Positions 11,554-28,948 of a stretch of 31,533 nucleotides of DNA are shown piece by piece. Made by a program: the position numbers and the translations under genes. Origin of the DNA: Bacteroidota bacterium (GTDB lineage Bacteria; Bacteroidota; Bacteroidia; Chitinophagales; UBA2359); the NCBI GenBank assembly GCA_020631675.1, contig JAHDGT010000002.1:1-31533 (forward strand), read 5' to 3'. The notes under the pieces were generated by a model. That model made no database searches. It saw only the letters and a program-made list of their open reading frames with translations, and had not been told where the DNA came from. How positions within the stretch are numbered: position 1 is the stretch's first letter; each line of letters begins with the position of its first letter.

Positions 11554-11631
11554 CAATTTGAAAATTTGATAATTAGCTAATTTGAAAATAATTGAATTTT
11601 CAAATTCTGAAATTGACTAATTTTCAAATTG
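11554..11631. repeat. AT-rich composite palindrome of four 11-bp units
   Basis: AATTTGAAAAT at 11555 and 11579; ATTTTCAAATT at 11596 and 11620. Confidence 0.8.
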
Positions 11632-11636
11632 TTTCC

Positions 11637-11788
11637 GCGTGAGGGATAGTAGTGGTTATGAAGCCGCTGAATGCGCCCTGTTTGGCGGCGTAGCGGGGCT
11701 GATCAGAGGAAGACACCGCTACGCCTGCCAAACAGCAGCAGGCAGCGGCTGAATTTGAACGGATAGCCCGACCCGCAGGGGCACGCCC
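11637..11788 (-). repeat. Dispersed nested-hairpin intergenic repeat, copy B
   Basis: The minus strand reads GGGCGTGCCCCTGCGGGTCGGGCTATCCG...AACCACTACTATCCCTCACGC. Internal stem 11678-11696 / 11716-11735. Confidence 0.8.
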
Positions 11789-11832
11789 AAATAAAAAAAC
11801 AATTAACACAAACATAAACTCCTATTCTTACT

Positions 11833-14751
11833 ATGAACTGGACAATATTAAAACAAGGAGGCAGTAGTTCAATGCTACTAAGTTGCTTTCTACTTATCCT
11901 CATTAGCATGCAAGTTCAAGCTCAGACCGCTTTTGATAGCGTAGCGGGCGATCCGCTTAAGGTGCAAATGTATACGCTTGACAATGGCTTGAAGGTCTAC
12001 TTAAGCGTAAATAAAGATGAGCCTCGAATTCAAACCGCGATTCCAGTGCGTGTGGGCTGTAAACAAGACCCTCGCGAAACGACCGGTCTTGCTCACTATT
12101 TAGAGCATATGCTTTTCAAGGGTACCGACCAAGTGGGTACTTCTAATTGGGAAGAAGAGAAAGTTTTATTAGATCAGATCCGCGACTTGTATGAAGCACA
12201 TATGAAGGAAGATGAACCCGAAAAGAAAAAAGCCATCTACGCTCAAATCGATAGTGTAAGCTTTGAGGCCTCCAAACTGGCCGTGCCTAACGAGTATGAT
12301 AAGATGGTGTCCTCTTTGGGAGCGAAATATACCAATGCTTACACCAGCACGGATCAAACGGTATACATCAATAACATACCTGCGAACGAATTGGAGAAGT
12401 GGTTAAAGCTGGAAAGCGAGCGTTTTAGAATGTTGGTTTTGCGTCTATTCCACACAGAATTAGAAGCGGTGTATGAAGAATTCAATATGAGTCAGGATCG
12501 CGATGGCAGCAAGGTTTATCAAGCCATGTTGAAGCGTTTATTCCCGAATCACCCTTATAGCATTCCTACGATCGGTACAGGTGAGCATTTAAAAAACCCT
12601 TCTTTGGTCGAGATCCAGAAGTTCTTTGACACTTACTATGTGGCCAACAATATGGCGATCGTGCTGGCTGGTGATTTTGAGCCGGAATCCACCATCAAAA
12701 TGATCAAAAAGTACTTTGGTGATATGCGTTCCGGCGAAGTACCGGAATGGTCTTTCAAACCAGAACCACCCATGACCGAAAACATCACTACTGAGGTGTT
12801 CGGTCAAGAAGCAGGCTATGTGAATTTATACTATCGCTTTAAGGGTGCTGGCTCTAAAGAAGCGAAAATCTTAAAGCTGATGGATGCCATTTTGGCGAAT
12901 GGCCAAGCGGGTTTGATGGACTTGAACCTGATCCAAAAGCAAAAGATCTTAGATGGCGGCTGCTATCAGTATTCTATGGTGGATTACTCCATTCATGTAC
13001 TGAATGGTAAAGCGCGTGAAGGTCAGAGCCTAGAAGAAGTAAGAGATTTGCTACTTGAACAAATTGAACTACTGAAGGCGGGCAAATTCGACGATTGGTT
13101 GATCGATGCGGTGATCAAAGATTTTAAATTATCAGAGATCAAAGGCTATGAAAGCAATTGGCTACGTAACAGAAAGATGGTATCCGCATTCATTGAGAAT
13201 AGACCTTGGTCGGATTATGTGAACGAGATGGACGAGCTGAGCAAGATCACGAAACAGGACATTGTTGAGTTCGTGAATAAGCATTACGACCATTATGTAG
13301 CGGTATTCAAACGCCAAGGAGATGATGATTCTGCCTATAAAGTAGAAAAGCCACCTATTACTCCTATTGAAATGGAACGGGCAAATGGCTCTGATTTTTA
13401 CAATGAATTCAATGCCATGGGTACAGACCGATTGAAGCCTGTATTCTTGGACTATGCGGCAGACATCAAGAAAGAAACACTCAAAACAGGTGTAGATATG
13501 AACTACATCAAAAATGAGACGAATGCGACTTTCAACTTGTACTACATCTTGGATATGGGTACGAGAAATGATAAGATGCTGGGCTTGGCGATCAAATACT
13601 TGCCTTATTTGGGTACCAGCAAATACAGTGCGGAGCAGCTGCAACAAGAGTTCTACAAGTTGGGTTTGAGCTTTGATGTATTCTCTTCGGGCGAGCGTGC
13701 TTATGTGAACTTAACGGGCTTAGACGAATCTTTAGAAGAGGGCGTTGCGCTATTTGAGCATGTACTGGCAAATGTTGTGGCTGATGAAACCGCATTGCAA
13801 AATATGATCGCAGGTGTTTTGAAAGAGCGTGAGGATGCGAAAAGTAACCCCCGTTCTATTTCAAGTGCTTTGTTCAATTATGGAGTCTATGGTAAAAACT
13901 CACCTTTCACACATAAACTGAGCAATGAAGAATTGAAGCAGGTTAAAGCCAGCGAGCTGATCGACCGTATCAAGTCTTTAACCAGCTACGAGCATTATGC
14001 TTTCTACTACGGTAGTAAGGAGATGAAAGATGTTTGTAAGTTGTTAAGCAGCGCACATCAAGTGCCTAAAACACTGAAACCATATCCAGCAGCAGCAACC
14101 TTCGAGCAAAAGGAAACTTTAGAAGACGAGGTGATCTTTGTTGATTATGACATGGTGCAAGCACGAATCATGATGTTGAGCAAAGACGAGCAGTTCACAC
14201 CTAAGCACATACCTTATACTCGTGTATTCGGGGAGTATTTCGGCTCTGGTCTGTCTTCGATCGTTTTCCAAGAGATTCGCGAGAAGCGGGCATTGGCTTA
14301 TAGTGCTTATTCTTTCTTTACCGTACCTCGTAAAAAAGATGAAGCCCACTACTTACGTGCTGGCATGAGTGTACAAGCGGATAAAATGCAGGATGCCATT
14401 ACAGCTATGCGTGGTCTGCTGAATGACATGCCTAAGATCGACCAGCAATTTGAAGGTGCGCGTACTTCCATTTTAAAGCAGATGGAGACAGAGCGGATCA
14501 CTAAAACCAACAAGTATTTCAATTACTTAACAGCTAAAGATCGTGGCTTAGACTATGATGTGCGTAAAGATGTGTATGAGAGCATTGAGAACATGAACAT
14601 TCGTGATATGGAGCGTTTCTTTAACCAGCATGTGAAAGCGAAGCCTTTCTCCTTCTTAGTTACGGGTAAGAAAGATGAACTGGACATGGAATACCTGAAA
14701 TCTTTGGGCAGCTATAAAGAGGCGAGCTTGGATGAGTTGTTCGGGTATTGA
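11833..14751 (+). CDS. M16 (insulinase/PqqL-like) zinc peptidase, single chain, with signal peptide
   Basis: Inverted zinc motif GLAHYLEH, NAYTSTDQTVY and downstream VYEE; second half with IREKRALAYS; hydrophobic N-terminus ending VQA. Confidence 0.93.
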   Translation: MNWTILKQGGSSSMLLSCFLLILISMQVQAQTAFDSVAGDPLKVQMYTLDNGLKVYLSVNKDEPRIQTAIPVRVGCKQDPRETTGLAHYLEHMLFKGTDQVGTSNWEEEKVLLDQIRDLYEAHMKEDEPEKKKAIYAQIDSVSFEASKLAVPNEYDKMVSSLGAKYTNAYTSTDQTVYINNIPANELEKWLKLESERFRMLVLRLFHTELEAVYEEFNMSQDRDGSKVYQAMLKRLFPNHPYSIPTIGTGEHLKNPSLVEIQKFFDTYYVANNMAIVLAGDFEPESTIKMIKKYFGDMRSGEVPEWSFKPEPPMTENITTEVFGQEAGYVNLYYRFKGAGSKEAKILKLMDAILANGQAGLMDLNLIQKQKILDGGCYQYSMVDYSIHVLNGKAREGQSLEEVRDLLLEQIELLKAGKFDDWLIDAVIKDFKLSEIKGYESNWLRNRKMVSAFIENRPWSDYVNEMDELSKITKQDIVEFVNKHYDHYVAVFKRQGDDDSAYKVEKPPITPIEMERANGSDFYNEFNAMGTDRLKPVFLDYAADIKKETLKTGVDMNYIKNETNATFNLYYILDMGTRNDKMLGLAIKYLPYLGTSKYSAEQLQQEFYKLGLSFDVFSSGERAYVNLTGLDESLEEGVALFEHVLANVVADETALQNMIAGVLKEREDAKSNPRSISSALFNYGVYGKNSPFTHKLSNEELKQVKASELIDRIKSLTSYEHYAFYYGSKEMKDVCKLLSSAHQVPKTLKPYPAAATFEQKETLEDEVIFVDYDMVQARIMMLSKDEQFTPKHIPYTRVFGEYFGSGLSSIVFQEIREKRALAYSAYSFFTVPRKKDEAHYLRAGMSVQADKMQDAITAMRGLLNDMPKIDQQFEGARTSILKQMETERITKTNKYFNYLTAKDRGLDYDVRKDVYESIENMNIRDMERFFNQHVKAKPFSFLVTGKKDELDMEYLKSLGSYKEASLDELFGY

Positions 14752-20453: not shown

Positions 20454-20487
20454 AAAAGGTACGTTGAGCTTATCAACGTACCTTTTT
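20454..20487 (+). terminator. Intrinsic terminator, possibly bidirectional
   Basis: AAAAGGTACGTTGA-gctta-TCAACGTACCTTTTT. Confidence 0.88.
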
Positions 20488-20510: not shown

Positions 20511-20870
20511 ATGAAAAAGAAAGTTTTTGTCAATTTAGACTACTTAGAAGAGCTGGCAGGTAGTGACGCACCTGAAAAAATACAGGAATGGTTATTAATG
20601 GGCGCACAGTTACTGCCCCAACGTTGGGAAGACATGGCTCTTTCTTTTGAGCAGGATGATGTGCAGGCACTTCAAATGGCGACGCATAAGTATCGTTCTA
20701 CGGCTCAGTTCTTGGGCTTGAGTATCGCACCCGTTTTAAAGCGTATAGAGAGTGAATTGAGGGCGGGAACGCCAATGGAAAAACTCAAGGCTACACTTAC
20801 CGCAGCTGAATGGATGACTAAAGAAAGTATAGCCCGTTTACAACAGTTGACACAGGCTCAAGCAGCATGA
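20511..20870 (+). CDS. Stand-alone Hpt (histidine phosphotransfer) protein
   Basis: VNLDYLEELAG N-terminus and ATHKYRSTAQFLG, a variant of AHKLKGSAxxxG. The 20445 start overlaps a terminator, so ATG 20511 is preferred. Confidence 0.75.
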   Translation: MKKKVFVNLDYLEELAGSDAPEKIQEWLLMGAQLLPQRWEDMALSFEQDDVQALQMATHKYRSTAQFLGLSIAPVLKRIESELRAGTPMEKLKATLTAAEWMTKESIARLQQLTQAQAA

Positions 20871-20925
20871 ACCAATGAACCAAACCCAACAAATACAAAC
20901 CTTATCATCTAATACCCTCCCCAAT

Positions 20926-21294
20926 ATGAATCGACCGAAAATATTGCTGGTCGAAGATGAACCTTTGATTTTAGATGCATTGGCATTTAGAATGAAAAAA
21001 GCAGGTTATGATACCCTGTCCGCTCCAGATGGAAAGCAAGCCATAGAACTGGTTCAAGAGCAAAGCTTCGACCTGATCATCACTGACCTCATGCTTCCTT
21101 TCGCAAATGGTTTTGAACTGATCTCTTATGTTCGGGAGACTTTAAAAAGCGATGTGCCGATCATTGTGCTATCTGTAGCAGGTGTAGAAAACATGATCGT
21201 TGAAGCCTTAGACCTAGGAGCTAATGATTTTGTGAATAAGCCATTTAGTCCACATGAATTGAATAGTAGGGTAAAGCGGTTATTACGTCGGTGA
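20926..21294 (+). CDS. Single-domain response regulator (receiver)
   Basis: KILLVEDE, DLIITDLMLP, VLSV and DFVNKPFS motifs; no output domain. Alternative start at 20875. Confidence 0.92.
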   Translation: MNRPKILLVEDEPLILDALAFRMKKAGYDTLSAPDGKQAIELVQEQSFDLIITDLMLPFANGFELISYVRETLKSDVPIIVLSVAGVENMIVEALDLGANDFVNKPFSPHELNSRVKRLLRR

Positions 21295-21308
21295 TGATAG
21301 GGTTTCTA

Positions 21309-22646
21309 TTAGAAAGTCATTCTCGCTCCTAAAGACGCATTGACCCGCCATACTTTCACCTCTGTGCTGAAAGTCACATCACTTCTTCTCAAGCCCGCAC
21401 TACCGAATACGGCATAGCGTGCTCCTATTTTTTTATTCACACTGCTATTGATTCTCCAAGAATTGATCGTCTCCGCATCTTCTTGTACTAAGATAACGGA
21501 CGAACTTACCTCTTCTGCTTGTCTGGGCGCGATTCCATAGCCCACAGTAATATCCCACCAGTCTTTACCTGATTTAGAAAATTTACGCAGTAAGAATTGC
21601 GCGGAGCCAGAAACACCGGTTTGCTTCGGGCTGATATAGCCTCGTGCTGATAGTAAAAGGTTTTTGTGGTATTTGGAATAGGAACCGGTATAGAAGCTTT
21701 TTACTTTATTCGTTGCTGTGCTATCAATAGGGTCTTTCTTATTATAGATCCAATGTCCACCTAGAGATACTTCTTGACCATTACCGATCGACCTAAAGAC
21801 TTCTACAGCAGCATGATGATCCACAAAAACTTTATCAGGTGAGTACGAATAACTCAAATAAGCGTACAGCCCCTTCCCCAAACTCGGGTAAGCTTCACAT
21901 AAAAGTTGCCAACCTATGGTATCAAATCTTTCTGCTAGAGAATATTGTAGACTCAAACTTCCATATTTCGTTTTTCTTCCATAGCGTACTCTAAAAGATT
22001 GTTCTAAGCGTTCAAGAGTATCTTCACCACCAATAACCATCCCATAAGATCCCGCTAAGCTATTTTTCCAAGAAGCGACTTTGATATTTTTAAGCAGTCG
22101 AGCAGCCTTTTCATGTTCCTCTTCAGCAAGGATTTCTTTAAGCAGGGGTATAGCGAGTTTGGGGTTTTCTAATTTGTTATGGGTAGCGGCTAATTTGTAG
22201 CGCCAATCCGAAATCTCGGGATAGTACATTACTGCGGTATCCGCAACACCTAGTGCAACTGTTGTGTTCCCTGACCAACTTTCTACATCAAATAAGGCAG
22301 ATAAAGCATCTTTGTGTTTTGGTTTTTGGCTCAGTACTTTCCTAAGTCCTGTCCTAGACCCTTCATATTGCTTTTCCCACGCCAGCACTCTTGATTTGAA
22401 GATTCGGATATCGTGATAATTAGGCGAACGCTCCAGTGCCACTTCACACATCTGTAAAGCAGCGCCTCTATGCCCTGCGAAAGCAGTATCTCTTGCCGCC
22501 TTGAAGAGCGCATCAATTCCTAAGTCCCGCCAAGCATCATCTGATGGTTGCTGTGCCAGTAAGGCATAGCTCCCCTCTCCTACTGTCATTAGTATAAAGA
22601 GTGACAGTAAGCATAGCTTGATATAGGTCTTTGTAGAATTTACCAT
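21309..22646 (-). CDS. YaiO-family outer-membrane beta-barrel with N-terminal TPR module
   Basis: Signal peptide, TPR-like helices, EAYPSLGKGLYAYLSYSYS, alternating beta-strand pattern and a C-terminal aromatic residue (LGARMTF). Confidence 0.82.
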   Translation of the reverse strand: MVNSTKTYIKLCLLSLFILMTVGEGSYALLAQQPSDDAWRDLGIDALFKAARDTAFAGHRGAALQMCEVALERSPNYHDIRIFKSRVLAWEKQYEGSRTGLRKVLSQKPKHKDALSALFDVESWSGNTTVALGVADTAVMYYPEISDWRYKLAATHNKLENPKLAIPLLKEILAEEEHEKAARLLKNIKVASWKNSLAGSYGMVIGGEDTLERLEQSFRVRYGRKTKYGSLSLQYSLAERFDTIGWQLLCEAYPSLGKGLYAYLSYSYSPDKVFVDHHAAVEVFRSIGNGQEVSLGGHWIYNKKDPIDSTATNKVKSFYTGSYSKYHKNLLLSARGYISPKQTGVSGSAQFLLRKFSKSGKDWWDITVGYGIAPRQAEEVSSSVILVQEDAETINSWRINSSVNKKIGARYAVFGSAGLRRSDVTFSTEVKVWRVNASLGARMTF

Positions 22647-22678
22647 GATAAAATGGGGAATTAAGGAGAAAATTCGGC

Positions 22679-25180
22679 TTACATTACTTTGGTCTTAGCC
22701 AACAAATTATTGTACTGAGGATGTTCTGGATTGACTGCTTGTAGTTTGTCCAAGAATATACATGCAGGCTCTTTTTCGTTTTTAATGATGTACATTCGAG
22801 CAACTCTGTACAAGAGTTCTTCGCTATTAGGCGATTTTTCCAGCCCTTTCAAGCCTAATGTAATCGCCTTGTCCACATTACCTGTCCAAAACTCCACATC
22901 CATTAAAGCGGCGAAAGCATCAGGGTACTCAGGAGAACGATTGATGATGTAGTTGAATTTTTCTCTCGCCTCGTCATATTCTCCATTCCATGCGTAAGTT
23001 CTTCCATATAGGGTACGCACATCGTGATAATCAGGGCTGACCTTTAGCAATCCTTCACAAATGACTCTTGCATCCTCGAATTTGCGGGCGAAAGCATATT
23101 CTCTGGCCAATAAAAAACGATCTTCTGTGTTCAGCACCTTTTTAATGTCGGCGCGCGTCCCTCCTGTCGTTAGTACATGCTCTCTAACAGGCTTCACCAC
23201 ATCAGGAATCACTAAGCGGTTATTGTAGCAAGCATATTGATTGTCGATTTTGAATTGCTTGAATTTCTCAGCGATCAAGTGCTTCACTTCTTCATTATCT
23301 ACCCTTTTCATACCCAACTGAGGCGTCATTTCATAAAGTTCCTCATCCGCATAGTAGTACTTATCGTGGATGTAATCCAGCATTTGGTTCTTATTGCGCA
23401 TTAGAGGTAGTGAGTGCGTGTTTCTGAATGTTTCCTCTGTATCTATCCCATCTCCTAACCAGTAAGCCTGTTCTGGGAAGCGCATGTCGTAGTTCTTTTC
23501 AAAGAAGCCCAACAAGCTAGGCAGCACATCCATATGTGTAGATACCGAGTTGAAAGTTTTAGCCTCCTTTATCATAGGTGAATGAATGATAAAGGGCACT
23601 CTGAAACGGTCGAGCTTCGTACTTAGGGGAATCACATCCATTCTATGATCGCCAGTGATGATGAAAATGGTGTTCTTGTACTCAGGACGTTTTTTATACG
23701 CCTCAATAAAATCACGTATCGCATCATCCGCATATTTCACCGAAGCGAATTGCTTCATGTATTTCTCATTGTATGCTTTTTTAGATGCGGGAATATCCAG
23801 CGCTTGATTCCAAGCTTTCGCTTTTTCAATATAGGCAGGACGTTCAGCAAATTGGAAAGGGTCATGCATACTCAAGGTCAAGTAGATATCTAATTTAGGA
23901 TTGCCTTTATGCTCACTATCCATCAATTCGAATGAACGGCTATAAAGCGACTTATCATCATAGCCCCATGAAAAGCCCTTATCATTACCATCCATTATTT
24001 TATAGTCTCCTCCAAAATCACGTACATCTTGTATGAAGCTCACATCATTGATACCAAAGAAATATCGTTTCTTATCAAAATTAGACGGACCACCATAATA
24101 GAAGTGAGACTCATAGCCGTACTGGCGTAATAGTGTCATCAAACTTAAATGGTCAGGCATTTTTTCACCCATTTCCAAAAAGCCGTGATCGGCATATGGT
24201 AGCGAGCCAAAGAGGGAGGGATACACTCCATAGGTTCTGCCAGTACAGCTTAAAAAGTTATTCCAGCTCAAACTCTCGCTCGCCAATTCGTCCAAAAATG
24301 GGGTAAAACTTCCCAAATAGGGACTTTCTCCACTGAAGGCACGACTCAAACTTTCTACGATTACAAAAACAACATTAGGCGGTTCACTATCATTCAATTC
24401 AAAATATTCACCCAATACATCTTCATATTTCACCTCTTTCATGAAAGGGTAATCCGTTCTACCGTCTATACTTGCTGCAGCTTTTATCTCACTCTTATTA
24501 TCATAATGAGTGAGTACATCTTTTACGAAAAACCCTACTTTATTCGTACTAATATGGTGTTGGGTTTCTTCGGTATAATCTTTTGGATCAGGCAGGCTCT
24601 TCCAACCTAATAAGCAACTGGCGAAACATAGAACAACAAAAGCGTAACTAGGTGCGGGAGTTGGCATCCATCGGTCTGCTATACGAGGGCTGAACCAAGC
24701 AAAAATGAGTGCGACCAAGCCACCGACCAAAGCCAGCCAGTTCGTATCACCACCACTCGCATTTGCTTTAAAAGTGGTAGACATCTCACTTATATCATAA
24801 CCTAACATATTAGCCCCCAGTGGAGTAAGCGTTATAATAAAATACTGTACAGCAGCAAAAAGAATGATCGTAATCACCATAGTAATGATTCTATAGAACC
24901 ACTTTCCACCCTTTTCGGTAAAATGACTGATCAGTACAAAAGGGAAAAACAACAATGCTGAAATTTGCAAGCAGAATAGTATATCATAGCCAAAACCCCA
25001 TAAAAAGTTCGACCAGCTATTCTCTGGTAGAATATGTTTAGCATTGATGCCTTGAAACTCTATCAACCTTAAAGTGAAAAAGATCAATAAAAGCACTACA
25101 CTTAAAGAGAAAAACCGTCTAATGATATGACTGGTCTTTTTAGATGCTGCCAACACTTTGATGTTATCAAACCATTTCAT
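22679..25180 (-). CDS. LTA-synthase/sulfatase-like membrane phosphotransferase with C-terminal TPR module
   Basis: About 5 N-terminal TM helices; PNVVFVIVES, SCTGRT (candidate catalytic Thr), SMHDPF and ITGDH motifs; TPR repeats at the C-terminus. Confidence 0.88.
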   Translation of the reverse strand: MKWFDNIKVLAASKKTSHIIRRFFSLSVVLLLIFFTLRLIEFQGINAKHILPENSWSNFLWGFGYDILFCLQISALLFFPFVLISHFTEKGGKWFYRIITMVITIILFAAVQYFIITLTPLGANMLGYDISEMSTTFKANASGGDTNWLALVGGLVALIFAWFSPRIADRWMPTPAPSYAFVVLCFASCLLGWKSLPDPKDYTEETQHHISTNKVGFFVKDVLTHYDNKSEIKAAASIDGRTDYPFMKEVKYEDVLGEYFELNDSEPPNVVFVIVESLSRAFSGESPYLGSFTPFLDELASESLSWNNFLSCTGRTYGVYPSLFGSLPYADHGFLEMGEKMPDHLSLMTLLRQYGYESHFYYGGPSNFDKKRYFFGINDVSFIQDVRDFGGDYKIMDGNDKGFSWGYDDKSLYSRSFELMDSEHKGNPKLDIYLTLSMHDPFQFAERPAYIEKAKAWNQALDIPASKKAYNEKYMKQFASVKYADDAIRDFIEAYKKRPEYKNTIFIITGDHRMDVIPLSTKLDRFRVPFIIHSPMIKEAKTFNSVSTHMDVLPSLLGFFEKNYDMRFPEQAYWLGDGIDTEETFRNTHSLPLMRNKNQMLDYIHDKYYYADEELYEMTPQLGMKRVDNEEVKHLIAEKFKQFKIDNQYACYNNRLVIPDVVKPVREHVLTTGGTRADIKKVLNTEDRFLLAREYAFARKFEDARVICEGLLKVSPDYHDVRTLYGRTYAWNGEYDEAREKFNYIINRSPEYPDAFAALMDVEFWTGNVDKAITLGLKGLEKSPNSEELLYRVARMYIIKNEKEPACIFLDKLQAVNPEHPQYNNLLAKTKVM

Positions 25181-25323
25181 AAGCCTAAATATTTATTTCT
25201 TGCTGTTATACTTTTTAAGCCGCCTAAAATTTCGTAATTGAGATAATTAAACGAATAGGCTTACTTATTGAATGGAATATTCATGCCATTCATTTGGTAT
25301 CGTCCTGTTCAAATTCTCCATTA

Positions 25324-26424
25324 ATGGATATCCATATACTATATATCGTCAGCATCTGCTTCATCATAGGTACAGCTTTAATGCTGGCGTTTATGATAAT
25401 GGGACGATTAATCAGAGATTGGAACAAACAAAAAAATGCCCAATTCGAAGAACAGTGGAGTCAACTACTTATTGAATACGCATTAGAAGACGAAGAAGAT
25501 TCAAAGCCGCTAGCAGAAATTCGGTCCTTTTTAAAAGAGAGTGGCAAAAGTTGGATACATGCGAAACGCTCAAAGCGAGTTTTACAGGGCATTCTTTTGA
25601 ACTTACATGAAAATTTAAAAGGAACAGCTGCTGAAAAACTTCGTGAACTGTATTTTAAAATTCAGTTAAACTTATGGACAAGCAAGCAATTGCGATCGAG
25701 GTCTACGGTAGGTAAGATCAAGGCTATAAGAGCACTTACCAAGATGGGTGCAAAAGAACAATTCGCTCTAATTGAACGTATAGACCATAGAGGAAATCAA
25801 TCACTCCAAACCGAGTTACTCATTGCTAAGCTTGTTTTATCCGAACAGCCTTTTGGTTTTTTATCAGATGCTAAAACAAGCATTTCCAAATGGACGCAAA
25901 TGCGACTACATGCCGAGCTGGTGAAACTTGACGCTTTAGCATTACCCCTTTTCAGTCAATGGCTGGATAATGATGAAAGTAGTGTTCTTCGTTTTTGCTT
26001 AGACATGTGTGCTGCTTTTGATCAGCAGTTCAGAGATGATAATGCTATTCGTAAGGCAAAACAGTTGATCAGACATGAAAATGTCGGTGTTCAAATAGCA
26101 GCTATTGGTGTACTCAGTAAATGGGGTGAAGAATCTACTGCTGATTTATTACTGGCACGATATAAGGAAGTAAATGAAGAACGCTTACAAATCGCTTTAT
26201 TGCGAGGTTTGGGCAATGCGATACACGAAGGTGTACTTGAAGTCTGTATCAGTTTACTTTTAAACATTCCACAAGAAGCGCATTTAGTACGTGTAGCTGC
26301 TGTGAAATCCTTAGCTCAACTATATCCTCAAGGTATTGAACGCCTTAGCGAACTAAATGAAGAACATAAAGAGGATGATCCTATGCTTGAACAGATCATC
26401 ACTCAAGTCTTAAACGCAACATAA
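25324..26424 (+). CDS. Membrane-anchored HEAT-repeat protein
   Basis: One N-terminal TM helix followed by helical repeats (VGVQIAAIGVLSKWG, LVRVAAVKSLAQL). ATG 25324 is preferred over TTG 25294. Confidence 0.8.
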   Translation: MDIHILYIVSICFIIGTALMLAFMIMGRLIRDWNKQKNAQFEEQWSQLLIEYALEDEEDSKPLAEIRSFLKESGKSWIHAKRSKRVLQGILLNLHENLKGTAAEKLRELYFKIQLNLWTSKQLRSRSTVGKIKAIRALTKMGAKEQFALIERIDHRGNQSLQTELLIAKLVLSEQPFGFLSDAKTSISKWTQMRLHAELVKLDALALPLFSQWLDNDESSVLRFCLDMCAAFDQQFRDDNAIRKAKQLIRHENVGVQIAAIGVLSKWGEESTADLLLARYKEVNEERLQIALLRGLGNAIHEGVLEVCISLLLNIPQEAHLVRVAAVKSLAQLYPQGIERLSELNEEHKEDDPMLEQIITQVLNAT

Positions 26425-26437
26425 ATAATCACATAAT

Positions 26438-27868
26438 TTGGATATAGCCAGTCATATCTCCTATTTCTTTCAGTATACGATCTTCTTTTACTGTATGTCT
26501 ATCATCGCATCTTATGTGATCATGGCGATTGTATCTGGAGTGAGCGTATACCGTTATTATAAGCGGAGTAGAAATGAAGATTACAGACAGCTTTTATCGT
26601 CCCCCTACGCCCCTTCTATCTCAATCATTGCCCCTGCTTACAACGAATCGGCAACTATTGTAGATAATATCCGCTCGCTGATGAATTTACACTATGGTAA
26701 ACTCACTGTGATCGTTGTGAATGACGGCAGTAAAGACGATACGAGAGATAGGGCTATTGAAGCTTATGACTTAGAGAAAGTACCTTTTGCCTATAATATG
26801 GGCGTGAAGACTAAAGAAGTCAGAGGTGTATACAAAAGTAAAAACCCTGCCTTTAGCAAACTGATCTTCGTTGATAAGCACAATGGGGGTAAGGCGGACG
26901 CTATTAATGTAGGCATTAACGTTTCACAGACCGACTTATTTGCTTGTATTGATGTGGATTGCATCATTGAGTCTGATGCGTTTCTCAAGATGGCGCATCC
27001 TTATATGGTCAATGATAAAGAGCGTATCATAGCTGTGGGCGGAATAGTATGGCTGACCAATGATGCAGAGATCAAAGAAGGACAGCTCATTCGCTTACGT
27101 TCTCCAGAGACTTTTCCGCCAAGAATGCAGGTCGTTGAATATTTCAGAGCCTTCCTACTCGGACGAACCGCATGGAGTACCTTCAATGGCTTATTACTCA
27201 TTTCAGGCGCATTCGGGCTGTTTGATAGAGAGATCGCCGTGGCCGCGGGTGGTTACAACCACAATACCGTAGGAGAAGACATGGAGCTGGTCATGCGCAT
27301 GCATGCCTATATGAGAGAGCGTAAGCTTCCTTATAGAGTAGAATACATACCTGATCCACTCTGTTGGACAGAAGCACCAGGAAATTTCAATATTCTCGGT
27401 AGGCAAAGAAACAGATGGACTAGAGGCACCATTGAATGTTTAATGATCCACAAAAAAATGTTCTTTAACCCACGTTATGGCGCATTGGGTTTATTGAGTT
27501 ACCCCTACTGGTTTTTCGCGGAATGGTTGGCTCCTTTTGTTGAGGCTGGTGGTATCTTATTCGTCATATTAGCTGCGATCTTCGGCTGGTTGAACATACC
27601 TTTTTTCATGTGGCTCACCATCTGCTTATTCGCTTTTTCGTTTTGCTTATCAACTTTTTCTATATGGCTTCAAATGGTCACCTATGACTGTTATAAAGGT
27701 AAAAGAGATTTACTCAGTTTAACCTTAACCGCATTCATAGAACCATTCTGGTATCATCCCAGAGTAGTTTATTGGGCACTCAAAGGCAATTACGATTTCT
27801 TCAGCAAGAAAAATGTAGGCTGGGGAGAAATGACCCGACAAGGTTTCGCCAATAAAAAGAAAAAATAA
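26438..27868 (+). CDS. Processive GT2 glycosyltransferase (PgaC/IcaA/cellulose-synthase-like)
   Basis: APAYNE, VNDGSKD, NGGKADA, DVD, VGEDME and QRNRW (QxxRW) motifs; N- and C-terminal TM helices; TTG start. Confidence 0.93.
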   Translation: MDIASHISYFFQYTIFFYCMSIIASYVIMAIVSGVSVYRYYKRSRNEDYRQLLSSPYAPSISIIAPAYNESATIVDNIRSLMNLHYGKLTVIVVNDGSKDDTRDRAIEAYDLEKVPFAYNMGVKTKEVRGVYKSKNPAFSKLIFVDKHNGGKADAINVGINVSQTDLFACIDVDCIIESDAFLKMAHPYMVNDKERIIAVGGIVWLTNDAEIKEGQLIRLRSPETFPPRMQVVEYFRAFLLGRTAWSTFNGLLLISGAFGLFDREIAVAAGGYNHNTVGEDMELVMRMHAYMRERKLPYRVEYIPDPLCWTEAPGNFNILGRQRNRWTRGTIECLMIHKKMFFNPRYGALGLLSYPYWFFAEWLAPFVEAGGILFVILAAIFGWLNIPFFMWLTICLFAFSFCLSTFSIWLQMVTYDCYKGKRDLLSLTLTAFIEPFWYHPRVVYWALKGNYDFFSKKNVGWGEMTRQGFANKKKK

Positions 27869-27871
27869 AAT

Positions 27872-28258
27872 ATGTCACTCAAAATACTAATTGTAGAAGA
27901 TGATGAACTATCCAGAGCACTAATGTGTTTTCAACTGAAATCGTGGAACTACGACACCTTCCAAGCAAAAAATGGTAAGGAAGCATTGCAGCTACTGACC
28001 ACACAAGCTTTTGACCTACTCTTACTAGACTATTCCTTGGGCGATATGACTGGCTTGAATATTGTTAATCATATATCAACAGACACGCCCACAACTTCCA
28101 AGTTCTACAAACCCCAGACCATCATCGCCATTAGTGCGAATTTCGACGACCCAACTGCTGTTCAAGAATGGCGTGAAGTAGGTGTTTTTCATGTACTTCC
28201 AAAACCATTCTCGAAAGTACAATTCGAACAAGCTATCAATGACCTCCCAAATAGCTAG
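27872..28258 (+). CDS. Single-domain response regulator (receiver)
   Basis: KILIVEDD, DLLLLDYSLG, IIAISA and LPKPF motifs; starts 3 nt after the GT2 stop. Confidence 0.9.
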   Translation: MSLKILIVEDDELSRALMCFQLKSWNYDTFQAKNGKEALQLLTTQAFDLLLLDYSLGDMTGLNIVNHISTDTPTTSKFYKPQTIIAISANFDDPTAVQEWREVGVFHVLPKPFSKVQFEQAINDLPNS

Positions 28259-28312
28259 TCAAGAAACGTACACTTCTAAGTGATTCATTAGTCTATAAGT
28301 AGTAACTAGTCC

Positions 28313-28948
28313 ATGGCTTTAGGAAAGTTCGGTATGTCTAAAAATCCTCTCCTACTCAAAAAAGGTAAGTTGAACCCTGTAAATGCGGGGCAATGTGCCA
28401 TAAGTGTACTCACACAACAATTAGAGAAAGAAAGGTATTACCACTGTGTGGAGCATACATTAAATGTAGTTGAATCGGTCACCAGAATCGGAAAAGCAGA
28501 AGGTATATCTAATGAAGAAATGCTGCTACTTAGAATAGCCGCATACTATCATGACTTGGGCTACATTGGTAATGGAGAAAACCATGAAAAAGTTAGCTGC
28601 ACCTATACTCAGCCTACTTTGCGACTCTTCGATTTATCTGACAATCAAATTGAAAAAATTTGCGACTTGATCATGTCCACCCACATGATGCAAGCTCCGC
28701 GAAATATACTAGAGTGTATTTTAAGTGATGCGGATACCGACTATTTAGGTAGAAAAGATTTTGTGGTCTGGAGCCGGCGGTTAATGAATGAATGGATGGC
28801 TTATAGTACGATTTCCAGAAAAGAAGAATTTTACATCAAACAAGTACAGTTCCTTCAAAAGCATAAATATTACACTCGCACGGCCATTCAAACCAGAGAA
28901 TTAGTCAAGCAACAAAACTTGAATTACGCCAAAACGCTACTTCCATAA
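28313..28948 (+). CDS. HD-domain metal-dependent phosphohydrolase
   Basis: YYHCVEHT, AAYYHDLG, MSTH and SDADTDYLG motifs. Alternative start at ATG 28334. Confidence 0.88.
   Translation: MALGKFGMSKNPLLLKKGKLNPVNAGQCAISVLTQQLEKERYYHCVEHTLNVVESVTRIGKAEGISNEEMLLLRIAAYYHDLGYIGNGENHEKVSCTYTQPTLRLFDLSDNQIEKICDLIMSTHMMQAPRNILECILSDADTDYLGRKDFVVWSRRLMNEWMAYSTISRKEEFYIKQVQFLQKHKYYTRTAIQTRELVKQQNLNYAKTLLP

Follow-up and report, generated by a model that had tools for sequence, protein, structure and literature searches.

How a polysaccharide might be made, decorated, exported and controlled in a bacterium whose genome appears to be missing cyclic di-GMP (c-di-GMP) signalling altogether is the question raised by a compact locus of a Chitinophagales bacterium (lineage UBA2359, assembly GCA_020631675.1), since synthase-dependent systems such as those for cellulose, poly-N-acetylglucosamine (PNAG), Pel, alginate and Nfr, which among makers of biofilm matrix are understood best, are mostly switched by c-di-GMP where they have been studied. 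The locus lies at positions 20511-28948 of the 31,533-nucleotide stretch of contig JAHDGT010000002.1 that we analysed (hereafter the window) and encodes a stand-alone histidine phosphotransfer protein (Hpt), two single-domain receivers (REC1 and REC2), a TPR-bearing YaiO-type barrel, an LtaS/OpgB-type transferase, a HEAT-repeat protein with a transmembrane (TM) helix (TM-HEAT), a family 2 glycosyltransferase (GT2) and a small HD-domain protein. An earlier interpretation of the letters and open reading frames (ORFs), which we call the sequence-only reading, had seen in it a complete machine for making, decorating and exporting a phospho-substituted beta-glycan under phosphorelay control. With a probability of roughly 60%, we conclude that the locus encodes a synthase-dependent system for polysaccharide secretion, one whose family is common across Bacteroidota but unstudied and is known here from genes and models.

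The ORF and domain scans, which covered ORFs at 1-29841, agree with the sequence-only reading on the domains, motifs and coordinates of the eight ORFs at 20.4-29.0 kb and on their grouping into units. Over the same range they detected no flippase, Wzy/Wzz, carbohydrate esterase family 4 (CE4) deacetylase, GGDEF/EAL or PilZ domain, and the sole CE4 match of the genome is on another contig. To call the machine complete goes too far, given that the window holds neither a kinase nor a periplasmic glycan hydrolase or lyase.

A gene set shared across Bacteroidota

Relatives of the GT2 gene were collected by a pattern scan over one genome per prokaryotic species, which returned at least 597 stretches. 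The best 80 of these are all from Bacteroidota, and the closest relatives among the matches listed belong to Flavipsychrobacter (Chitinophagaceae) and to metagenome-assembled genomes of Saprospiraceae. Every ORF of the related loci (numbered with the prefix L) was clustered, with counts taken over the 48 loci that have full flanks. TM-HEAT adjoins GT2 in 47 of them, a receiver is present in 46 and the TPR-YaiO barrel in 41; a hybrid histidine kinase was found in 25, and in 18 an LtaS-type gene lies no more than 10 kb from the synthase. The commonest order is kinase, REC, (YaiO), HEAT, GT2, (LtaS), (YaiO). This neighbourhood survey confirms that six of the eight genes co-occur in other genomes, and the objection that the set is not found together elsewhere therefore fails for these six.

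Full-length matches to a HEAT-family profile (E<1e-25) were obtained in ca. 50 of 400 sampled Bacteroidota species, and full-text literature searches yielded no description of a REC-HEAT-GT2-YaiO system. The remark of the sequence-only reading that parts of this neighbourhood recur in Bacteroidota without a characterised product has thus been put into numbers. Some Bacteroidota genomes (G315, G307, G022 and G047) encode two full-length copies of the HEAT partner and may run two parallel systems. Lineages beyond the one studied here also carry additional parts, as seen in a family of ca. 395 aa (F8) that adjoins YaiO in 13 of the 48 loci and was seen at L016:13500-14678 (minus strand) and at 14 other loci in all, L009, L013, L020 and L048 among them. 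This family has no Pfam match, no match in the genome of the window and nothing except "hypothetical protein" clusters in a protein atlas; it may be a further periplasmic component.

The HD gene, which the sequence-only reading had counted as part of the system, is treated here as a neighbour and not as a member of the locus. Homologues were found for 23 of the 52 good genomes that represent the order. For the most part they are stand-alone proteins of ca. 200 aa, and none of five inspected loci has a REC or GT2 gene alongside; a protein-atlas look-up returned generic HD families only.

Synthase, transferase and putative pore

The GT2 protein contains the motifs NDGSKDD, DVD (172-174), GED (279-281) and QRNRW (323-327), which are invariant across 24 relatives and align to the motifs of BcsA. 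Its best curated match is PgaC/IcaA (TIGR03937; E 2e-38, 132 bits vs. a cut-off of 422), and the AlphaFold2 model (pLDDT 85, pTM 0.85) sets a GT-A domain between one long helix at the N-terminus and five helices at the C-terminus. The best folds for this model are hyaluronan synthases (HAS, such as Cv-HAS and Xl-HAS1; TM-scores of 0.53-0.65); BcsA, chitin synthases and plant CesA come next, and a Pfam scan of the 476-aa protein found no extra domain and specifically no PilZ or MshEN. Fold and motifs, as judged from the model and the BcsA alignment, indeed support the view that GT2 is a processive-type inner-membrane synthase, and the model also has membrane helices packed on the GT domain, as a translocation channel would require. 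On this structural evidence, the protein is a member of the membrane-integrated processive synthase class that stands outside every characterised family, and its product would be beta-linked given the inverting mechanism of family GT2. At L083, GT2 is followed downstream by a PhdYeFM/YoeB toxin-antitoxin pair (11598-12103) and then by the glucosamine-6-phosphate synthase gene glmS (12573-14414), which could be a hint of an amino-sugar polymer or a coincidence.

The LtaS-type protein has its PF00884 domain at residues 268-559 (E 4e-39) and is homologous to Vibrio VP1736 (3lxq), Listeria LtaP and LtaS. A hydropathy scan shows four clear TM segments at residues 23-164, and inspection by eye adds a fifth; together with the basic N-terminus, they would place the catalytic domain in the periplasm. 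Among 30 locus-linked LtaS-type members, the residues E276, T316 (in a GRT motif), H439 and D511-H512 are 90-100% conserved, and we take them to correspond to E255, T300, H416, D475 and H476 in the active site of S. aureus LtaS. Of the curated models, that of phosphoglycerol transferase I (OpgB, NF009027; E 1e-15) fits best, with 57 bits vs. a cut-off of 572, and the scores for LtaS (46/970 bits) and CptA (16/404 bits) are likewise under their cut-offs. No match to the BcsG family was found, and a Pfam scan (E 0.01) listed Sulfatase, Metalloenzyme and TPR only.

That this enzyme works with the synthase is most strongly indicated by repeated gene fusion. GT2 and LtaS form a single ORF of ca. 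1150 aa with both Pfam domains in L053 (Empedobacter) and L071 (Chryseobacterium), and with the LtaS half of a fusion as query, more than 110 of the best 120 clusters at 90% identity were fused proteins of ca. 1140 aa. Such fusions are common in Chryseobacterium and Sphingobacterium and also come from Empedobacter, Kaistella, Myroides and Pseudopedobacter; the fused clusters bear just the name "sulfatase-like hydrolase/transferase". On the GT2 tree the fused state has at least three independent origins. The functional tie between an LtaS-like enzyme and the synthase that had been proposed is thus well founded, and the recurrent fusion predicts a phospho-decorated polymer. The structural neighbours of the GT2 model also include BcsA-BcsG3 complexes (PDB 9fmz and 9b8v), which show by experiment that a synthase can be coupled to a phosphotransferase for lipid head groups and so serve as a precedent.

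The putative pore matches both PF19413 (107 bits vs. 23.9) and TIGR04390 (77.9 bits vs. 32). The protein has a signal peptide, and its AlphaFold2 model (pLDDT 90.7) comprises ten TPR helices (ca. five TPRs, residues 38-191) and a 14-strand barrel (195-444) with a loop helix at residues 374-381. Foldseek places E. coli BcsC at ranks 1-2 and PelBC at rank 5, with CymA, a sugar channel of 14 strands, also among the top matches. The model and the best structural matches, BcsC and PelB, therefore uphold its description as a TPR protein with a beta-barrel.

The TPR region is shared with the transferase. The last 155 residues of the LtaS-type protein align with the first TPRs of YaiO at 32% identity (E 2e-22), and the LtaS TPR used as query matched the N-terminus of 52 of 58 YaiO proteins. 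Elsewhere, LtaS proteins that end in this TPR module were found in L038, L060, L061 and L069, and every one of their genes directly precedes YaiO as in the window; the order LtaS-YaiO is likewise found in L081. Much as PgaA and PelB retain PgaB and PelA, the TPR module may tether the LtaS-type enzyme to the periplasmic scaffold of the pore.

The proposed phosphorelay and the predicted receiver complex

Neither a GGDEF (PF00990) nor a PilZ (PF07238) match was found in the 98%-complete genome, and control genomes do match. The synthase is instead accompanied by TM-HEAT, a cytoplasmic alpha-solenoid that is anchored by a single TM helix at its N-terminus and has a glycine, G100, that is invariant in the family; we regard this protein as the obligate partner of the synthase. 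The HEAT partner of Bacteroidales is larger (ca. 580-790 aa), and at L010:7629-9989 it bears an N-terminal SPOR (peptidoglycan-binding) domain, which implies another topology or anchoring there.

REC1 has the residues expected of a receiver (E27/D28, D71, S100 and K122) and is orthologous to the receiver found ahead of HEAT-GT2 in almost every related locus. A three-chain prediction of GT2, HEAT and unphosphorylated REC1, run on our own per-chain alignments and scored by ipSAE, gave 0.67 in three of three runs vs. 0.00, 0.00 and 0.19 for the controls (verdict "supports binding"), and the score falls to 0.19 with GT2 swapped and to 0.00 with REC swapped. Among solved complexes, 58 of 80 attain the 0.67 mark, as do 2 of 110 mismatched pairs, a yardstick that is rough for a three-chain job with its own alignments. 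REC1 is predicted to dock between GT2 and HEAT. In the model, its contacts are made by alpha-1 and by the loops that surround D71, S100 and K122 (73-84, 101-114 and 122-128), and the partner surfaces are residues 46-56 and 90-103 of HEAT, including G100, and residues 50-56, 79-87, 136-140 and 213-216 of GT2. A GT2-HEAT-receiver assembly, for which the sequence-only reading had suggested a multimer model, is backed by the multimer score, which exceeds the best control (0.67 vs. 0.19). The wider proposal of that reading, that the HEAT protein and the receivers may replace activation by c-di-GMP, is in keeping with the predicted docking of REC1 and the lack of GGDEF and PilZ matches.

REC2 is 28% identical to REC1 and has kept the acidic pair, Asp, Ser and Lys, yet its proposed membership of the system could not be upheld because none of the other loci examined has a REC2 downstream of GT2. 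The two closest relatives, L100 and L081, have a HisKA-HATPase-REC kinase that lacks Hpt encoded directly behind GT2, and the window has a bare REC2 in this place. REC2 is 27-30% identical to the receivers of these kinases and may be the relic of a hybrid-kinase receiver domain of the L100/L081 type; it may also stand at the head of a split His-Asp-His-Asp relay as its first receiver.

The Hpt protein itself scores below threshold in Pfam (Hpt, E 0.007). Its HK..S......G motif is present, with the phosphorylatable His within ATHKYRSTAQFLG, and hhalign aligns it to the Hpt domains of locus-linked hybrid kinases with 99.5% probability (E 3e-22). Small Hpt-like ORFs also lie directly upstream of REC in L065 and L021. 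Kinases that flank the locus elsewhere have the architecture GAF/PAS-HisKA-HATPase-REC-Hpt, and the genome of the window has ca. 60 kinase or receiver-domain matches outside the locus, including two PAS-HisKA-HATPase-REC-Hpt hybrids.

A possible input signal was seen at two related loci (GT2 68-70% identical), where a H-NOX domain (PF07700) and a kinase stand beside the locus (L081:11499-13377 and L083:3630-6686). In L081 the H-NOX gene precedes the kinase that follows GT2, and in L083 the H-NOX gene and a PAS kinase are upstream, which suggests nitric oxide or oxygen as input in these relatives. For the locus of the window H-NOX input was rejected, as its genome has no PF07700 match.

Taken together, the inner-membrane GT2 would polymerise a nucleotide sugar and thread the chain through its own membrane channel, with the single-pass HEAT protein as fixed cytoplasmic partner of the synthase. 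The LtaS/OpgB-type enzyme beside it would move a phosphorylated phospholipid head group onto the chain emerging in the periplasm, and its C-terminal TPR, a copy of the TPR of the pore, would hold the enzyme at the TPR-YaiO barrel where the chain exits. Control would be post-translational and run through a His-Asp phosphorelay from a hybrid kinase, possibly via REC2, to Hpt and then REC1, whose phospho-Asp surface would bind the GT2-HEAT junction and replace the c-di-GMP receptors of Pga, Bcs and Nfr. It is from genes and models that we infer the polymer, the identity of its substituent, its passage through the pore and the phospho-dependence of activation. The polymer may carry a phospho-substituent, either phosphoglycerol or phosphoethanolamine, may be a beta-glycan and may act in biofilms or as a phage receptor, as the sequence-only reading had supposed.

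Locus layout, known systems and rival explanations

The features of the locus are collected in the table. The hairpin sits between a copper-monooxygenase-like gene whose product is sorted by the type IX secretion system (T9SS) and Hpt, and marks the left edge of the locus. REC1 starts 4 nt after Hpt, and the two-gene minus-strand unit, in which YaiO is 33 nt downstream of the LtaS-type gene, converges on Hpt-REC1. Both promoters are presumed to lie inside the divergent spacer; a sigma-70 scan, which does not cover Bacteroidota promoters, gave 19 sites vs. 23.5 expected. The other genes of the window are unrelated (DUF1501/DUF1800, SulP, MoxR, dnaX, a M16 peptidase, AAA/VWA and a T9SS-sorted protein); the T9SS domain assigns their bearer to Bacteroidota.

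Table. Features of the locus, with positions counted from the first letter of the window.
Feature	Position	Strand	Basis or remark
Terminator-like hairpin, 14-bp perfect stem	20454..20486	+	Strongest such element in the region
Hpt, stand-alone, ca. 119 aa	20511..20870	+	hhalign vs. kinase Hpt domains
REC1, single-domain receiver	20875..21294	+	Response_reg, E 3e-29
TPR-YaiO barrel, 445 aa, putative export pore	21309..22646	-	PF19413, TIGR04390
LtaS/OpgB-type transferase-TPR, 833 aa	22679..25180	-	PF00884, E 4e-39, plus TPR
Divergent intergenic region, 143 nt	25181..25323	.	Between the LtaS-YaiO and HEAT-GT2-REC2 units
TM-HEAT, 366 aa	25324..26424	+	HEAT_2, E 1e-11
GT2, PgaC-like, 476 aa	26438..27868	+	D, DxD, GED and QRNRW motifs
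REC2, second single-domain receiver	27872..28258	+	Starts 3 nt past the GT2 stop
HD-domain phosphohydrolase, small	28313..28948	+	Begins 55 nt beyond REC2

Among characterised systems, that for poly-beta-1,6-GlcNAc (PgaABCD of E. coli, IcaADBC of staphylococci) resembles the locus in its synthase, given that PgaC/IcaA is the best curated match of GT2 and also a small enzyme with few TM segments that needs a membrane partner, and in both cases a protein with TPRs and a beta-barrel is the exporter, a putative one in the locus. They differ in that a TM-HEAT protein of 366 aa takes the place of PgaD, the locus has no PgaB-type deacetylase, the pore is of the YaiO type with 14 strands (14 bits vs. 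367 for the PgaA model TIGR03939) and the genome of the window has no GGDEF or PilZ match. In the Bcs cellulose system of E. coli, in particular its BcsA-BcsG3 complex, a processive GT2 is coupled to a membrane-anchored phosphoethanolamine transferase of the alkaline-phosphatase fold, which puts a lipid-derived phospho group on the nascent chain as proposed here, and a TPR-barrel is the exporter; GT2 finds BcsA, and YaiO finds BcsC, near the top of its structural matches. Unlike Bcs, the locus has a transferase of the LtaS/OpgB type (PF00884) and not BcsG, coupled by fusion or shared TPR instead of a BcsG trimer, and it is devoid of a PilZ domain, BcsB, BcsZ and BcsE/F (CelA model 46 bits vs. 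699). In E. coli NfrB-NfrA-YbcH, a GT2 with a TPR-containing outer membrane partner secretes a polysaccharide that serves as phage receptor (PMC8669469). The locus shares this pairing, but its GT2 (476 aa) has no extra domain and the genome no GGDEF match.

A further relative may be found in E. coli K-12 itself (L092, NC_000913 380069-384616), where the deacetylase gene yaiS, the GT2 gene yaiP, the acyltransferase gene yaiX (split by IS2) and the barrel gene yaiO form what looks like a decayed synthase-type polysaccharide operon. As in the window, a YaiO barrel is linked to a GT2 and to polysaccharide-modifying genes, and YaiP is 26% identical to the GT2 of the window (E 4e-12). The E. coli YaiO has no TPR, however, and the cluster has acyltransferase and deacetylase accessories but no HEAT, REC or LtaS gene. 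BLASTP gave no significant alignment between the barrel of the window and E. coli YaiO, leaving their kinship at profile level only. That yaiO adjoins yaiP in E. coli means that the link between YaiO and GT2 is old.

For the proposed control, the closest parallel is EpsW of Myxococcus xanthus, a single-domain regulator that in its phosphorylated form directly activates EpsZ post-translationally (PMC12802240). EpsW does so by binding this membrane glycosyl(-phosphate) transferase, as is proposed here for REC1, but EpsZ is a phosphoglycosyl transferase that starts a Wzx/Wzy pathway and not a processive GT2, and it has no HEAT partner.

Several observations weigh against our interpretation and lend substance to other ones. 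The GT2 protein is far under every curated equivalog cut-off (PgaC 132/422 and CelA 46/699 bits), and relatives of the NodC type with identical motifs produce short oligomers. The YaiO barrel has 14 strands vs. 16 in BcsC, PgaA and PelB, and because of this difference its TM-scores to these exporters are low (0.36-0.48); in addition, a YaiO literature search returned diagnostic-PCR and incidental mentions, with no polymer passage shown. If YaiO were not an export pore, the product could be a glycan retained in the periplasm or envelope like the osmoregulated periplasmic glucans, whose backbone is the product of the membrane GT2 OpgH and receives phosphoglycerol from OpgB. For this the 14-strand barrel with a loop helix (374-381) that could plug it, the literature without a demonstrated export role and OpgB (NF009027) as best curated hit of the LtaS-type enzyme would all be arguments. 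We consider this rather improbable, given that the OpgB match reaches just 57 of 572 bits, that GT2 resembles PgaC and HAS but not OpgH, that a TPR-bearing YaiO accompanies the synthase in 41 of 48 loci and that its architecture best fits the exopolysaccharide exporters BcsC and PelBC. The transferase poses a problem of its own, as 30 of the 48 loci have no LtaS in the vicinity of the synthase, among them the whole Bacteroidales and Flavobacterium-rich clades of the tree, and must therefore be an optional accessory module and not core. This distribution also argues against the idea that the enzyme is a polymerase for a teichoic-acid-like polyglycerol-phosphate chain, with GT2 supplying a glycan or glycolipid as the primer much as a glycolipid anchor serves LtaS of Firmicutes, since most lineages run the system without LtaS. 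Homology to LtaS and LtaP with the full catalytic set, the LtaS-like layout of several TM segments and an extracytoplasmic domain, and a fusion to GT2 that would suit the hand-over of a primer are in favour of such a role, but a score of 46 bits vs. 970 for the LtaS equivalog and a GT2 fold typical of processive, channel-forming synthases make it quite improbable.

The proposed control invites similar doubts. REC1 of the window lies 4 kb from HEAT-GT2, beyond the minus-strand unit and thus outside the operon in which REC, HEAT and GT2 are usually joined; its docking is a model score obtained from our own alignments for an unphosphorylated receiver; and there is no histidine kinase in the window and none elsewhere in the genome that is assignable to the locus. 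Single-domain receivers are often sinks or shuttles, so the receivers might never touch the synthase and the relay could act indirectly, as phosphate sink or through an unlinked transcription factor, with a purely structural HEAT protein. This we hold to be unlikely, because REC directly precedes HEAT-GT2 (or YaiO before them) in most loci, the ipSAE of 0.67 drops to 0.19 and 0.00 when GT2 and REC, respectively, are swapped, the interface is formed by the D71 loops and the invariant G100 of HEAT, and direct activation of EpsZ by phosphorylated EpsW provides a precedent (PMC12802240). A chance gathering of the eight genes would agree with the poor conservation of HD and REC2 alongside the others, but deserves next to no credence in view of conservation in hundreds of species, repeated fusions and the shared TPR module, and it is contradicted for the six core genes.

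With a synthase-dependent secretion system as the preferred interpretation, what is new here is the recurrent LtaS-type decorating module with its fusions and shared TPR, and the split phosphorelay. A bolder version, which we advance tentatively and with well under even odds, is that the phosphorylated receiver wedges between synthase and HEAT protein and switches on polymerisation without c-di-GMP, and that in many lineages the LtaS-type enzyme, fused to the synthase or tethered by its TPR, makes a teichoic-acid-like surface polymer substituted with phospholipid head groups. If true, neither such phospho-gating of a processive synthase nor such a polymer has been described for Bacteroidota. 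Judging by the profile search, about one-eighth of the sampled Bacteroidota species may carry the machine, with Flavobacterium, Chryseobacterium, Pedobacter, Sphingobacterium, Chitinophaga and Polaribacter as carriers that can be cultivated, so that the control of matrix production in bacteria without c-di-GMP becomes directly testable. The chemistry of the polymer could bear on biofilms, surface charge, phage adsorption and the ways in which these abundant bacteria of soil, water and gut interact with hosts or algae.

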